Below, one piece after another: positions 5,552 to 45,913 of a stretch of 45,913 nucleotides of DNA. The notes under the pieces are model-generated. The model worked only from the letters and a program-made list of their open reading frames with translations. It was not told the origin of the DNA and did no database searches. Each line of letters begins with the position of its first letter. Within the stretch, counting starts at the first letter, position 1. Made by a program: the position numbers and the translations under genes. The stretch is from Escherichia coli. Its GTDB lineage: Bacteria > Pseudomonadota > Gammaproteobacteria > Enterobacterales > Enterobacteriaceae. Where the stretch lies: NCBI RefSeq assembly GCF_003334785.1, contig NZ_QOWV01000023.1. One strand, 5' to 3'.

Positions 5552-5660
5552 TGCCGGATGCGGCGTGAACGCCTTATCCAGCCTACAAATTTGTGCAAAT
5601 TCAATAAATTGCAGGAAATACGTAGGCCTGATAAGACGCGTCAAGCGTCGCATCAGGCAT
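5552..5660. repeat. REP/BIME repetitive extragenic palindromes between convergent phr and dtpD
   Basis: GCCGGATGCGGCGTGAACGCCTTATCCAGCCTACA and GTAGGCCTGATAAGACGCGTCAAGCGTCGCATCAGGCA are canonical E. coli REP units. Confidence 0.75.
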
Positions 5661-23005: not shown

Positions 23006-23126
23006 CCGTAGGCCTGATAAGACGCGCAAGCGTCGCATCAGGCAACCAGTGCCGGATGCGGCGTGAACGCCTTATCCGGCCTACAAGTCATTACCCGTAG
23101 GCCTGATAAGCGCAGCGCATCAGGCG
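23006..23126. repeat. REP/BIME cluster (three REP units) between sdhB and sucA
   Basis: CCGTAGGCCTGATAAGACGCGCAAGCGTCGCATCAGGCA, GCCGGATGCGGCGTGAACGCCTTATCCGGCCTACA and CCGTAGGCCTGATAAGCGCAGCGCATCAGGCG. Confidence 0.75.
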
Positions 23127-27360: not shown

Positions 27361-27625
27361 GTAGACCGGATAAGGCATTATCGCCTTCTCCGGCAATTGA
27401 AGCCTGATGCGACGCTGACGCGTCTTATCAGGCCTACGGGACCACCAATGTAGGTCGGATAAGGCGCTAGCGCCGCATCCGACAAGCGATGCCTGATGTG
27501 ACGGTTAACGTGTCTTATCAGGCCTACGGGGACCACCAATGTAGGTCGGATAAGGCGCAAGCGCCGCATCCGACAAGCGATGCCTGATGTGACGTTTAAC
27601 GTGTCTTATCAGGCCTACGGGTGAC
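27361..27625. repeat. Tandem BIME array of REP pairs: ~90-bp unit, ~2.4 copies
   Basis: Units at 27402-27490, 27491-27581 and partial 27582-27621, each GCCTGATG(C/T)GACG...GTCTTATCAGGCCTACGGG...CCACCAATGTAGGTCGGATAAGGCGC.AGCGCCGCATCCGACAAGCGAT. Confidence 0.8.
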
Positions 27626-35865: not shown

Positions 35866-36147
35866 ATTGGCTGAAAGGCGGTAATTTAGCTATAAATTGA
35901 TCACCGTCGAAAAATGCAAATTTGCTTCAACAAAAACCTGTTTATTGTAAGGATTTTGCGGCGTAATATATACGTGGGATCAATTTGAGTTTTTATTAAC
36001 ATGTTTGCAACCTTTCTTTACGCCGTTTTTGTGTGCATTCACATGGTATGATGAAAGTGTTCAAACAAATTTCTATTGGGGCATGCGTGTGACCCTTTCT
36101 AACGGGGTTCACTCTCGGAGTCTTCATGCGATGAGCAAGGAGTCATG

Positions 36148-37716
36148 ATGTTAGATATAGTCGAACTGTCGCGCTTACAGTTTGCCTTGACCGCGATGTA
36201 CCACTTCCTTTTTGTGCCACTGACGCTCGGTATGGCGTTCCTGCTGGCCATTATGGAAACGGTCTACGTCCTCTCCGGCAAACAGATTTATAAAGATATG
36301 ACCAAGTTCTGGGGCAAGTTGTTTGGTATCAACTTCGCTCTGGGTGTGGCTACCGGTCTGACCATGGAGTTCCAGTTCGGGACTAACTGGTCTTACTATT
36401 CCCACTATGTAGGGGATATCTTCGGTGCGCCGCTGGCAATCGAAGGTCTGATGGCCTTCTTCCTCGAATCCACCTTTGTAGGTCTGTTCTTCTTCGGTTG
36501 GGATCGTCTGGGTAAAGTTCAGCATATGTGTGTCACCTGGCTGGTGGCGCTCGGTTCAAACCTGTCCGCACTGTGGATTCTGGTTGCGAACGGCTGGATG
36601 CAAAACCCAATCGCGTCCGATTTCAACTTTGAAACTATGCGTATGGAGATGGTGAGCTTCTCCGAGCTGGTGCTTAACCCGGTTGCTCAGGTGAAATTCG
36701 TTCACACTGTAGCGTCTGGTTATGTGACTGGCGCGATGTTCATCCTCGGTATCAGCGCATGGTATATGCTGAAAGGTCGTGACTTCGCCTTCGCTAAACG
36801 CTCCTTTGCTATCGCTGCCAGCTTCGGTATGGCTGCTGTTCTGTCTGTTATTGTTCTGGGTGATGAATCCGGCTACGAAATGGGCGACGTGCAGAAAACC
36901 AAACTGGCTGCTATTGAAGCCGAGTGGGAAACGCAACCTGCGCCTGCTGCCTTTACTCTGTTCGGCATTCCTGATCAGGAAGAGGAGACGAACAAATTTG
37001 CGATTCAGATCCCTTACGCACTGGGCATCATTGCAACGCGTTCCGTGGATACCCCGGTTATCGGCCTGAAAGAGCTGATGGTGCAGCATGAAGAACGCAT
37101 TCGTAACGGGATGAAGGCGTACTCTCTGCTCGAACAACTGCGTTCTGGTTCTACCGACCAGGCGGTTCGTGACCAGTTCAATAGCATGAAGAAAGACCTC
37201 GGTTACGGTCTGCTGCTGAAACGCTATACGCCAAACGTGGCTGATGCGACTGAAGCGCAGATTCAACAGGCAACCAAAGACTCCATCCCGCGTGTAGCGC
37301 CGCTGTACTTTGCGTTCCGTATCATGGTGGCGTGTGGCTTCCTGCTTCTGGCAATCATCGCGCTCTCTTTCTGGAGTGTCATCCGCAACCGCATTGGCGA
37401 GAAAAAATGGCTTCTGCGCGCCGCGCTGTACGGTATTCCGCTGCCGTGGATTGCTGTAGAAGCGGGCTGGTTCGTGGCTGAATATGGCCGCCAACCGTGG
37501 GCTATCGGTGAAGTGCTGCCGACAGCTGTGGCGAACTCGTCACTGACCGCAGGCGATCTCATCTTCTCAATGGTGCTGATTTGCGGCCTGTATACCCTGT
37601 TCCTGGTGGCAGAATTGTTCTTAATGTTCAAGTTTGCACGCCTCGGCCCAAGCAGCCTGAAAACCGGTCGCTATCACTTTGAGCAGTCTTCCACGACTAC
37701 TCAGCCGGCACGCTAA
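36148..37716 (+). CDS. cydA: Cytochrome bd-I ubiquinol oxidase subunit I
   Basis: 522-aa product from [24 protein letters not shown]; ORF track begins one codon earlier (ATGATG). Confidence 0.97.
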
Positions 37717-37731
37717 GACAGGAGTCGTCAA

Positions 37732-38871
37732 ATGATCGATTATGAAGTATTGCGTTTTATCTGGTGGCTGCTGGTTGGCGTTCTGCTGATTGGTTTTGCA
37801 GTCACTGACGGTTTCGACATGGGGGTGGGCATGCTCACCCGTTTCCTCGGTCGTAACGACACCGAGCGTCGAATTATGATTAACTCCATTGCACCACACT
37901 GGGACGGTAACCAGGTTTGGCTGATCACCGCGGGCGGCGCACTCTTTGCTGCCTGGCCGATGGTCTATGCCGCTGCGTTCTCCGGCTTCTATGTGGCGAT
38001 GATCCTCGTGCTGGCGTCTTTGTTCTTCCGTCCGGTCGGTTTTGACTACCGCTCCAAGATTGAAGAAACCCGCTGGCGTAACATGTGGGACTGGGGCATC
38101 TTCATTGGTAGCTTCGTTCCGCCGCTGGTAATTGGTGTAGCGTTCGGTAACCTGTTGCAGGGCGTACCGTTCAACGTTGATGAATATCTGCGTCTGTACT
38201 ACACCGGTAACTTCTTCCAGTTGCTTAACCCGTTCGGCCTGCTGGCAGGCGTGGTGAGCGTAGGGATGATCATTACTCAGGGCGCAACCTATCTGCAAAT
38301 GCGTACCGTGGGCGAACTGCACCTGCGTACCCGTGCAACGGCTCAGGTGGCTGCGCTGGTGACACTGGTCTGTTTCGCACTGGCTGGCGTATGGGTGATG
38401 TACGGTATCGATGGTTATGTCGTGAAATCGACAATGGACCATTACGCAGCCTCTAACCCACTGAATAAAGAAGTGGTTCGTGAAGCTGGCGCATGGCTGG
38501 TTAACTTCAACAACACGCCAATTCTGTGGGCTATTCCGGCACTGGGTGTGGTTCTGCCGCTGCTGACCATCCTGACTGCACGTATGGATAAAGCCGCGTG
38601 GGCGTTTGTGTTCTCCTCCCTGACGCTGGCCTGCATCATCCTGACAGCCGGTATCGCAATGTTCCCGTTTGTGATGCCGTCCAGCACCATGATGAACGCA
38701 AGTCTGACAATGTGGGATGCAACTTCCAGCCAGCTGACGCTTAACGTCATGACCTGGGTTGCGGTGGTTCTGGTACCGATCATTCTGCTCTACACCGCCT
38801 GGTGTTACTGGAAAATGTTCGGTCGTATCACCAAAGAAGATATTGAACGTAACACCCACTCTCTGTACTAA
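37732..38871 (+). CDS. cydB: Cytochrome bd-I ubiquinol oxidase subunit II
   Basis: 379-aa ORF (MIDYEVLRFIWWLLVGVLLIGFAVTDGFDMG...). Confidence 0.97.
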   Translation: MIDYEVLRFIWWLLVGVLLIGFAVTDGFDMGVGMLTRFLGRNDTERRIMINSIAPHWDGNQVWLITAGGALFAAWPMVYAAAFSGFYVAMILVLASLFFRPVGFDYRSKIEETRWRNMWDWGIFIGSFVPPLVIGVAFGNLLQGVPFNVDEYLRLYYTGNFFQLLNPFGLLAGVVSVGMIITQGATYLQMRTVGELHLRTRATAQVAALVTLVCFALAGVWVMYGIDGYVVKSTMDHYAASNPLNKEVVREAGAWLVNFNNTPILWAIPALGVVLPLLTILTARMDKAAWAFVFSSLTLACIILTAGIAMFPFVMPSSTMMNASLTMWDATSSQLTLNVMTWVAVVLVPIILLYTAWCYWKMFGRITKEDIERNTHSLY

Positions 38872-38885
38872 GTAAGGAGCTAAAA

Positions 38886-38999
38886 ATGTGGTATTTCGCA
38901 TGGATTCTGGGAACGCTTCTTGCCTGTTCGTTTGGGGTAATCACCGCGCTGGCGCTTGAACACGTCGAATCAGGCAAAGCCGGTCAAGAAGACATCTGA
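38886..38999 (+). CDS. cydX: Cytochrome bd-I accessory small membrane protein (37 aa)
   Basis: ATG at 38886 preceded by AAGGAG; translation MWYFAWILGTLLACSFGVITALALEHVESGKAGQEDI; below the ORF-track size cutoff; formerly ybgT. Confidence 0.85.
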   Translation: MWYFAWILGTLLACSFGVITALALEHVESGKAGQEDI

Positions 39000-39292
39000 T
39001 GAGTAAGATTATCGCGACTTTGTATGCGGTAATGGACAAGCGCCCCCTGCGGGCGCTTTCCTTCGTGATGGCGCTTCTGTTAGCAGGATGTATGTTTTGG
39101 GACCCATCTCGTTTTGCCGCGAAGACCAGTGAACTGGAAATCTGGCATGGTTTATTGCTGATGTGGGCCGTCTGTGCTGGTGTGATTCACGGCGTGGGCT
39201 TTCGTCCGCAGAAGGTTCTTTGGCAAGGGATTTTTTGCCCATTGCTTGCCGATATTGTTCTCATTGTCGGGCTGATTTTCTTCTTCTTTTAA
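38999..39292 (+). CDS. ybgE: cyd operon small inner-membrane protein
   Basis: 97-aa hydrophobic ORF; start ATG overlaps the cydX stop (TGATG). Confidence 0.85.
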   Translation: MSKIIATLYAVMDKRPLRALSFVMALLLAGCMFWDPSRFAAKTSELEIWHGLLLMWAVCAGVIHGVGFRPQKVLWQGIFCPLLADIVLIVGLIFFFF

Positions 39293-39441
39293 ATCAGAAT
39301 TCTCTTTAAAAAATTATGGGCCGCTCCAGGCCCATAAATTTTTACGCTCCCTTAACTTGCCCTCATTCCCAAACCTCAATCGCGCGCGTATAGTAGCAGC
39401 GTTTAAAAGCTCTAACTTTTGTTGCATTACCGGGATGTAAA

Positions 39442-40535
<1,094 letters not shown>

Positions 40536-43732: not shown

Positions 43733-44278
<546 letters not shown>

Positions 44279-44287
44279 GAGAATTGC

Positions 44288-45079
44288 ATGAGCAGTAACT
44301 TCAGACATCAACTATTGAGTCTGTCGTTACTGGTTGGTATAGCGGCCCCCTGGGCCGCTTTTGCTCAGGCACCAATCAGTAGTGTCGGCTCAGGCTCGGT
44401 CGAAGACCGCGTCACTCAACTTGAGCGTATTTCTAATGCTCACAGCCAGCTTTTAACCCAACTCCAGCAACAACTTTCTGATAATCAATCCGATATTGAT
44501 TCCCTGCGTGGTCAGATTCAGGAAAATCAGTATCAACTGAATCAGGTCGTGGAGCGGCAAAAGCAGATCCTGTTGCAGATCGACAGCCTCAGCAGCGGTG
44601 GTGCAGCGGCGCAATCAACCAGCGGCGATCAAAGCGGTGCGGCGGCATCAACGACGCCGACAGCTGATGCTGGTACTGCGAATGCTGGCGCGCCGGTGAA
44701 AAGCGGTAATGCAAACACGGATTACAATGCAGCTATTGCGCTGGTGCAGGATAAATCCCGCCAGGATGACGCAATGGTGGCATTTCAGAATTTCATCAAA
44801 AATTACCCTGATTCAACTTACCTGCCAAACGCCAATTATTGGCTGGGTCAGTTAAACTACAACAAGGGTAAAAAAGATGATGCGGCGTACTATTTTGCTT
44901 CGGTAGTGAAAAACTATCCGAAGTCACCAAAGGCTGCAGATGCGATGTTTAAAGTCGGCGTCATCATGCAGGACAAAGGTGACACCGCAAAAGCGAAAGC
45001 CGTATACCAGCAGGTTATCAGTAAATACCCTGGTACTGATGGCGCTAAACAGGCACAAAAACGTCTGAACGCGATGTAA
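44288..45079 (+). CDS. cpoB: Cell-division coordinator CpoB (TPR-repeat periplasmic protein)
   Basis: 263-aa ORF with signal peptide, coiled-coil and C-terminal TPR-like repeats; formerly ybgF. Confidence 0.93.
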   Translation: MSSNFRHQLLSLSLLVGIAAPWAAFAQAPISSVGSGSVEDRVTQLERISNAHSQLLTQLQQQLSDNQSDIDSLRGQIQENQYQLNQVVERQKQILLQIDSLSSGGAAAQSTSGDQSGAAASTTPTADAGTANAGAPVKSGNANTDYNAAIALVQDKSRQDDAMVAFQNFIKNYPDSTYLPNANYWLGQLNYNKGKKDDAAYYFASVVKNYPKSPKAADAMFKVGVIMQDKGDTAKAKAVYQQVISKYPGTDGAKQAQKRLNAM

Positions 45080-45243: not shown

Positions 45244-45319
45244 GGGTCGTTAGCTCAGTTGGTAGAGCAGTTGACTTTTAATCAATTGGTCGCAGGTTCG
45301 AATCCTGCACGACCCACCA
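45244..45319 (+). tRNA. lysT: tRNA-Lys (anticodon UUU)
   Basis: 76-nt GGGTCGTTAGCTCAGTTGGTAGAGCAGTTGACTTTTAATCAATTGGTCGCAGGTTCGAATCCTGCACGACCCACCA, CCA encoded. Confidence 0.95.
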
Positions 45320-45454
45320 ATCGCTAAGGTGGAAGCGGTAGTAAAACGTGAAGGATAACGTTGCATGAGCAACGGCCCGAAGGGCGAGACGAAGTCGAGT
45401 CATCCTGCACGACCCACCACTAACATAGTTAGTTGTAGTATCCAGCGTAGTATC

Positions 45455-45530
45455 GGGTGATTAGCTCAGCTGGGAGAGCACCTCCCTTACAAGGAGGGGG
45501 TCGGCGGTTCGATCCCGTCATCACCCACCA
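45455..45530 (+). tRNA. valT: tRNA-Val (anticodon UAC)
   Basis: 76-nt GGGTGATTAGCTCAGCTGGGAGAGCACCTCCCTTACAAGGAGGGGGTCGGCGGTTCGATCCCGTCATCACCCACCA. Confidence 0.95.
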
Positions 45531-45533
45531 CTC

Positions 45534-45609
45534 GGGTCGTTAGCTCAGTTGGTAGAGCAGTTGACTTTTAATCAATTGGTCGCAGGTTCGAATCCTGCAC
45601 GACCCACCA
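45534..45609 (+). tRNA. lysW: tRNA-Lys (anticodon UUU)
   Basis: Identical 76-nt tRNA-Lys sequence, 3 nt after valT. Confidence 0.95.
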
Positions 45610-45758
45610 GTTTTAACATCGAAGACAGATGTTAAGCGTGTAGGATAACGTTGCGTCAGCAACGGCCCGTAGGGCGAGCGAAGCGAGTCATCCTGCACGA
45701 CCCACCACTAATGACGGTGGGTTCGGTGGAAGTAGTTTGTAGTATCCAGCGCAGTATC

Positions 45759-45834
45759 GGGTGATTAGCTCAGCTGGGAGAGCACCTCCCTTACAAGGAG
45801 GGGGTCGGCGGTTCGATCCCGTCATCACCCACCA
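45759..45834 (+). tRNA. valZ: tRNA-Val (anticodon UAC)
   Basis: Identical 76-nt tRNA-Val sequence. Confidence 0.95.
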
Positions 45835-45837
45835 CTC

Positions 45838-45913
45838 GGGTCGTTAGCTCAGTTGGTAGAGCAGTTGACTTTTAATCAATTGGTCGCAGGTTCGAATCCT
45901 GCACGACCCACCA
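45838..45913 (+). tRNA. lysY: tRNA-Lys (anticodon UUU); ends exactly at the window edge
   Basis: Identical 76-nt tRNA-Lys sequence ending in CCA at 45911-45913. Confidence 0.9.

Follow-up and report, generated by a model that had tools for sequence, protein, structure and literature searches.

The cydX-ybgE gene pair downstream of cydB in Escherichia coli: a known oxidase subunit and a candidate accessory factor

Within the window—the whole stretch of Escherichia coli DNA analysed here, 45,913 nucleotides in length—two short open reading frames (ORFs) lie directly downstream of the cytochrome bd oxidase gene cydB and precede ybgC (Table 1). The first begins with an ATG at position 38886, 14 nt past the cydB stop codon (TAA at 38869-38871), and its 37 codons specify the product MWYFAWILGTLLACSFGVITALALEHVESGKAGQEDI, which contains a single hydrophobic segment spanning approximately residues 2-24. 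The second ORF comprises 97 codons and encodes GACATCTGATGAGT. The TGA of the upstream frame (38997-38999) and the ATG of the downstream frame (38999-39001) have one A in common. The original prediction had singled out precisely this arrangement, namely a 37-codon ORF after cydB with an AAGGAG and a single hydrophobic helix, overlapping the next ORF in a TGATG, and each of these elements can be read directly from the letters.

Table 1 Features of the cyd locus and other annotated elements in the window.
Feature	Coordinates	Strand	Remarks
cydA	36148-37716	+	Cytochrome bd-I subunit I; RefSeq annotation of the identical locus, ORF list
cydB	37732-38871	+	Cytochrome bd-I subunit II; NF011579, 867.9 bits (cut-off 718); RefSeq
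cydX Shine-Dalgarno sequence AAGGAG	38874-38879	+	6 nt 5' of the ATG; spacer CTAAAA
cydX (formerly ybgT)	38886-38999	+	Subunit X of cytochrome bd-I; 37 aa, one helix
TGATG stop/start overlap, cydX-ybgE	38997-39001	+	From the sequence
ybgE	38999-39292	+	Inner-membrane protein of 97 aa with three helices; part of the cyd operon
Intrinsic-terminator-like hairpin with T-run	39307-39344	+	Stem 39314-39337 (terminator scan); ends the cyd operon before ybgC
Promoter-like site	39366-39394		TTCCCA, 17 nt, TATAGT; just 5' of ybgC
426-aa ORF	37621-38901	-	Antisense to nearly all of cydB; crosses the cydX start
49-aa ORF	38828-38977	-	Overlaps cydX
Rfam matches elsewhere in the window	44179-44317; 23011-23081 (-); 27453-27615; 5587-5629; 45244-45913		See text

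At the 5' end of the operon, cydA carries two adjacent in-frame ATG codons (36145-36150), such that mechanical ORF calling from 36145 yields 523 aa and the RefSeq gene, starting at 36148, 522 aa. At the 3' end, the terminator-like hairpin folds with a calculated energy of -18.8 kcal/mol (z -4.38), and 0 of 200 shuffled sequences were as stable. An A-run and a T-run on either side of the hairpin lead to a terminator score on both strands. The long ORF antisense to cydB is most likely a codon-composition by-product of a hydrophobic gene and not a gene itself. Beyond the cyd locus, Rfam models matched the CpoB/ybgF thermometer (142 bits), three naRNA4/REP-type elements, the ES036 sRNA and a tRNA-Lys/tRNA-Val array with RtT elements, all of which are expected for such an E. 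coli region.

To assign the two ORFs, we compared the locus with public genomes, curated protein families and solved structures. Over bases 38600-39450, the window shows 100% identity to E. coli chromosomes; this stretch was found in 5426/5426 complete E. coli genomes (at least 95% identity). The RefSeq labels at the identical locus read cydB, cydX, ybgE and ybgC, and the coordinates of the middle two coincide exactly with 38886-38999 and 38999-39292. The 37-aa product scored 70.7 bits against the NCBIfam model TIGR02106 (“cytochrome bd-I oxidase subunit CydX”; cut-off 31.6, E 9e-20) and equals chain X of PDB entry 6RKO over 37/37 residues; the identical sequence is present in 9 PDB entries. 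This model score and structural match bear out the proposal that the small ORF encodes an accessory subunit of cytochrome bd oxidase. The product shows the features of CydX family members, being within the ~30-50 aa size range, forming a single hydrophobic helix, and lying directly 3' of cydB. It also contains Y3, W6 and G9, all three of which have been named as conserved CydX residues (PMC6005532). Compared with CydX (YbgT) of E. coli bd-I (6RKO/6RX4 chain X; TIGR02106; PF08173), the window protein differs in nothing, and its gene matches in place after cydB and in Shine-Dalgarno (SD) sequence.

The closest relative to be told apart is AppX/CbdX of E. coli bd-II (7OSE chain C), a paralogous single helix with a CydX-like MWY..W start. 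However, AppX aligns only weakly with the window CydX (residues 1-23 only, E 0.015), and the 37-aa product stayed below the cut-off of the AppX/CbdX model NF011333 (21.7 bits versus 57). Furthermore, the AppX gene sits in the appCB operon, which is absent from the window, whereas cydX belongs to the cyd operon. The 97-aa product, in turn, matched NF007881 over its full length (185.2 bits, cut-off 116), TIGR02112 (141.8 bits, cut-off 89.55) and Pfam PF09600, Cyd_oper_YbgE (E 1.1e-33), and it shares the operon position of this family without any difference. It is therefore next to certain that the two ORFs are cydX and ybgE. As both genes are known and carried in routine annotation, there is nothing new in finding them. 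As for the idea that the short ORF had been missed, it holds insofar as any 60-aa filter would drop a 37-aa product, but the public RefSeq annotation does include cydX.

Coding constraint was assessed by pairwise Nei-Gojobori dN/dS for the locus from four enterobacterial genera, represented by the E. coli window, Salmonella, Klebsiella and Cedecea. The values ranged from 0.04-0.18 for cydX and 0.05-0.10 for ybgE, as compared to 0.06-0.11 for cydB and 0.05-0.12 for ybgC; the two small genes are thus constrained as strongly as their well-known neighbours. Both the AAGGAG and the TGATG are kept in Salmonella, Klebsiella and Cedecea (3/3 genera), and the AAGGAG of the cydX position also in a Pasteurellaceae-like locus. 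Between the same pairs of enterobacterial genomes, ybgE dS (1.3-2.9, once saturated) exceeded that of cydB (0.7-1.2) and ybgC (0.5-0.9), a pattern in line with low expression and only weak selection on codon usage.

A 37-codon ORF by itself is no better than chance, given the 111 ORFs of 20 aa or more that overlap the surrounding 7 kb. One might hence ask whether it arose by chance, or whether the real gene is the 49-aa ORF on the opposite strand, all the more so as the original annotation of E. coli CFT073 lacks cydX and places c0813, a gene on the other strand, between cydB and ybgE (PMC5320621). Yet solved bd-I structures contain a chain with exactly the sequence of the plus-strand product, which already refutes this reading, and we consider it virtually without probability. 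What lifts the cydX ORF above chance is the family HMM score beyond a curated cut-off, the identity to the solved chain, the low dN/dS and the conserved AAGGAG and TGATG. The 49-aa antisense ORF itself may correspond to c0813 of CFT073; an NsrR ChIP peak has been reported at the c0813 spot (PMC5320621).

Ribosome recruitment along the operon was gauged from calculated duplex energies with the anti-SD sequence of the 16S rRNA. The cydX site paired most strongly of the operon (-8.4 kcal/mol), with cydA at -8.0, cydB at -6.9, ybgC at -5.0 and ybgE at -2.4 kcal/mol. RNA structure beyond shuffled controls was found neither at the cydX/ybgE junction nor at the cydX start (z -0.06 and -0.15, respectively). 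Since ybgE lacks a usable SD sequence and starts within the stop codon of cydX, the TGATG is likely to impose translational coupling at a low level: ribosomes ending cydX would restart at the overlapping ybgE ATG, and the output of YbgE would be lower than that of CydX.

With respect to CydX, the published record is extensive. Both small proteins of the cyd operon were reported back in 1997 by Muller & Webster, as related in passages of PMC4325964 and PMC11576283. Deletion of CydX results in slow growth, sensitivity to reductants and less oxidase activity, and tagged CydX co-purifies with CydAB or oxidase activity (PMC6005532, PMC12648545); assembly and activity of the oxidase depend on CydX, as cited in PMC6005532, PMC8951039 and PMC12648545. 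In cryo-EM structures, its single helix packs on CydA helices 1, 5 and 6, with a hydrophilic, cytoplasmic C-terminal part and Glu25 acting as a “float” (PMC6853902, PMC8951039). According to a 2026 study, CydX also forms the bd-I dimer interface and lines a secondary ubiquinone pocket (PMC13189123). Stable assembly of the haem centres and oxidase activity need this subunit, a role we count as shown because of the sequence identity to the solved chain and the published experiments. The checks proposed for the small ORF with the original prediction, that is, oxidase assays in deletion mutants and co-purification of a tagged protein, have largely been published already, with positive outcome; the prediction understated how well known CydX is.

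We then turned to YbgE. The protein is hydrophobic, as had been anticipated, with a GRAVY of 1.07 and three hydrophobic segments at approximately residues 19-33, 48-66 and 75-97 by hydropathy. Clusters of Lys/Arg at the N-terminus (positions 3, 14, 15 and 18) and in the second loop (69 and 72) predict an N-in, C-out topology. An AlphaFold2 model built with 31 family members reached a mean pLDDT of 92.1 and a pTM of 0.81, and displays long helices at 15-34, 48-66 and 81-96 plus short connecting helices. The family is small: a search of 1.84 billion proteins gave 75 cluster representatives at E≤0.001, and its homologues reach down to 24% identity. Near-invariant positions include R18, A25, P36, G65, G67 and P81, and a recurrent (I/V)HG(V/I)GF.P motif marks the cytoplasmic end of helix 2. 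The histidine of this motif is variable: His64 as a haem ligand was considered and rejected, as the family has H, Y, N, F, A or L at that position. Taken together, the cydB-like dN/dS, the distant homologues and the confident three-helix model establish YbgE as a real protein.

Structure and literature searches were less informative as to what YbgE does. A sequence search of the PDB returned no chain at E≤10, and the best match of a Foldseek search of the PDB with the YbgE model had an E of 4, with TM-scores ≤0.39, which is meaningless. Against AFDB50, 50/50 of the matches listed were YbgE family members; these came from Enterobacterales, Vibrionales, Pasteurellales, Aeromonadales, Oceanospirillales and Pseudomonadales, with one Sulfuriferula as the lone beta-proteobacterium among the matches listed. 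The searchable literature yielded no functional study or phenotype of YbgE, consistent with the prior statement that the function of ybgE is poorly defined; matches for “ybgE” mostly concerned an unrelated Bacillus aminotransferase. The label ‘cytochrome bd biosynthesis protein’ that YbgE bears in some sources appears to rest on context only.

The genomic context of ybgE was inspected in 10 relatives of 24-87% identity, seven of them distant (24-39%) and three enterobacterial. In 10/10, ybgE is located directly 3' of a small ORF in the cydX position, which is a PF08173 cydX gene in nine loci and, in a Pasteurellaceae-like pair (L003/L004), a 32-aa ORF without a Pfam hit. Among the seven distant loci, cydX and ybgE overlap by 4 to 20 nt in six and are separated by a 1-nt gap in one; the three enterobacterial loci have the 1-nt overlap of the window.

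The 32-aa ORF of the Pasteurellaceae-like pair deserves a separate remark. Its product, MLYVVWVVGVLLAIFVSAKLTIGKEKAGKFDE, is encoded at L004:4901-4999 (+) (GCA_000222065.2), with the same ORF in L003, in a host locus of the order cydAB-ybgE-ybgC-tolQR. It is preceded by an AAGGAG, and Y3, W6 and G9 are kept. The ORF is absent from the called genes of the record, which shows no Pfam hit for it, and it returned no NCBIfam hit at E≤0.01. Judging from its sequence, it looks like a divergent CydX missed by gene callers and HMMs.

Most of the inspected ybgE loci run on into ybgC-tolQ-tolR. This raises the alternative that YbgE serves the downstream ybgC-tolQRA-pal envelope system and that its place after cydX is historical. 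Several observations argue otherwise. The overlap of ybgE is with cydX and not with ybgC, and the strong terminator hairpin separates ybgE from ybgC. One of the distant loci (L006) reads cydP-cydA-cydB-cydX-ybgE, followed by convergent unrelated genes, and is devoid of tol genes. Finally, the ybgE transcript follows those of cydABX in E. coli under microaerobiosis (PMC8910356), and in the literature on a Vibrio vulnificus regulator mutant it likewise moves with cydABX. We rejected the Tol-Pal link on the strength of L006 and the terminator, deeming it highly improbable. Given the linkage to cydX, the tol-free locus, the terminator before ybgC and the shared mRNA changes, YbgE belongs with the oxidase and not with Tol-Pal.

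How YbgE might act on the oxidase is a question on which the structures bear most directly. None of the 9 bd-I PDB entries contains a YbgE chain, and the subunits in published bd-I structures are only CydA, CydB, CydX and CydH (PMC8951039, PMC13189123, PMC6853902). Plasmids carrying cydABX only give active enzyme (PMC13189123, PMC6853902). The lack of YbgE in the maps is nevertheless weak evidence, as these preparations over-expressed cydABX without ybgE. A kan cassette between cydX and ybgE caused no growth or beta-mercaptoethanol phenotype, in a strain whose loss of YbgE was unchecked (PMC6005532). One proteomics study detected neither CydX nor YbgE (PMC8910356).

A precedent for an overlooked subunit exists in CydH/CydY (YnhF), the fourth subunit of bd-I, which is likewise a small membrane protein, was long unrecognised, and is tied to gamma-proteobacterial bd-I of the long-Q-loop type (PMC8951039, PMC6853902). 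CydH and YbgE differ, however, in that the former is a single helix encoded elsewhere and present in structures, whereas the latter is a three-helix protein encoded within the operon and found in no structure. Could YbgE be a true fifth stoichiometric subunit of bd-I, lost from view through over-production of cydABX only and through detergent extraction? The strict adjacency with cydX in all ten relatives and a purifying selection as strong as that on cydB would fit such a role, as would the use of purification plasmids without ybgE (PMC13189123, PMC6853902) and the fact that CydH/YnhF was itself overlooked until 2019 (PMC6853902). Yet one over-expressed preparation from a cydABX plasmid did recover the chromosomally encoded CydH/YnhF and not YbgE (PMC6853902), in keeping with the missing PDB match. 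A stoichiometric subunit is also disfavoured by the ybgE start, whose lack of an SD sequence argues for less protein than CydX, and by the cassette that splits cydX from ybgE with no oxidase-type phenotype (PMC6005532). Enzyme extracted with SMALP was described at the level of 2D classes only, with YbgE unmentioned, and the structures were described as CydABXH (PMC13189123). On balance, we regard a fifth stoichiometric subunit as improbable.

A further potential sign of physical association, natural fusion of the two proteins, was rejected. Database ‘fusions’ with both CydX and YbgE domains measure 131-135 aa (P0002-P0006, P0012 and P0018; corresponding to window positions 38950-39001). Most arise from a frameshift, at varying sites in the 3' part of cydX, that lets reading continue into the ybgE frame; this frame stays open upstream of the ybgE ATG. 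P0018 alone looks in-frame. Because most of the ‘fusions’ occur only once, in metagenome or read-archive assemblies, they are probably errors.

Our preferred reading, to which we give slightly less than even odds, is that YbgE, present at low abundance, serves as a non-essential accessory or assembly factor specific to the CydX-type bd-I of gamma-proteobacteria, and not as a stable stoichiometric subunit. That it would be neither a stable nor an essential subunit is suggested by the missing structure chain, the active cydABX-only enzyme and the silent kan insertion. More specifically, and with a little more reserve, YbgE may be a dedicated transient partner of CydX-containing bd-I, either as a helper in insertion or haem loading or as a loosely bound regulatory subunit. 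As such, YbgE would be made beside nascent CydX by coupled translation and be lost in standard preparations. As a whole, the locus is best explained by a cydA-cydB-cydX-ybgE operon in the window, at a probability of roughly 95%.

For genome scanning, the locus provides a clean positive control: a strong SD sequence, a single helix and a place after cydB suffice to flag a protein that size filters remove. Biologically, cydX is settled, and assigning a role to YbgE would be a modest, specialist advance. YbgE is under cydB-like constraint and always travels with cydX over several gamma-proteobacterial orders, and bd oxidase is a current antibiotic target. If YbgE is indeed a transient partner of the oxidase, it would matter only in conditions such as stress from NO or sulfide, or growth under microaerobiosis or within the host.
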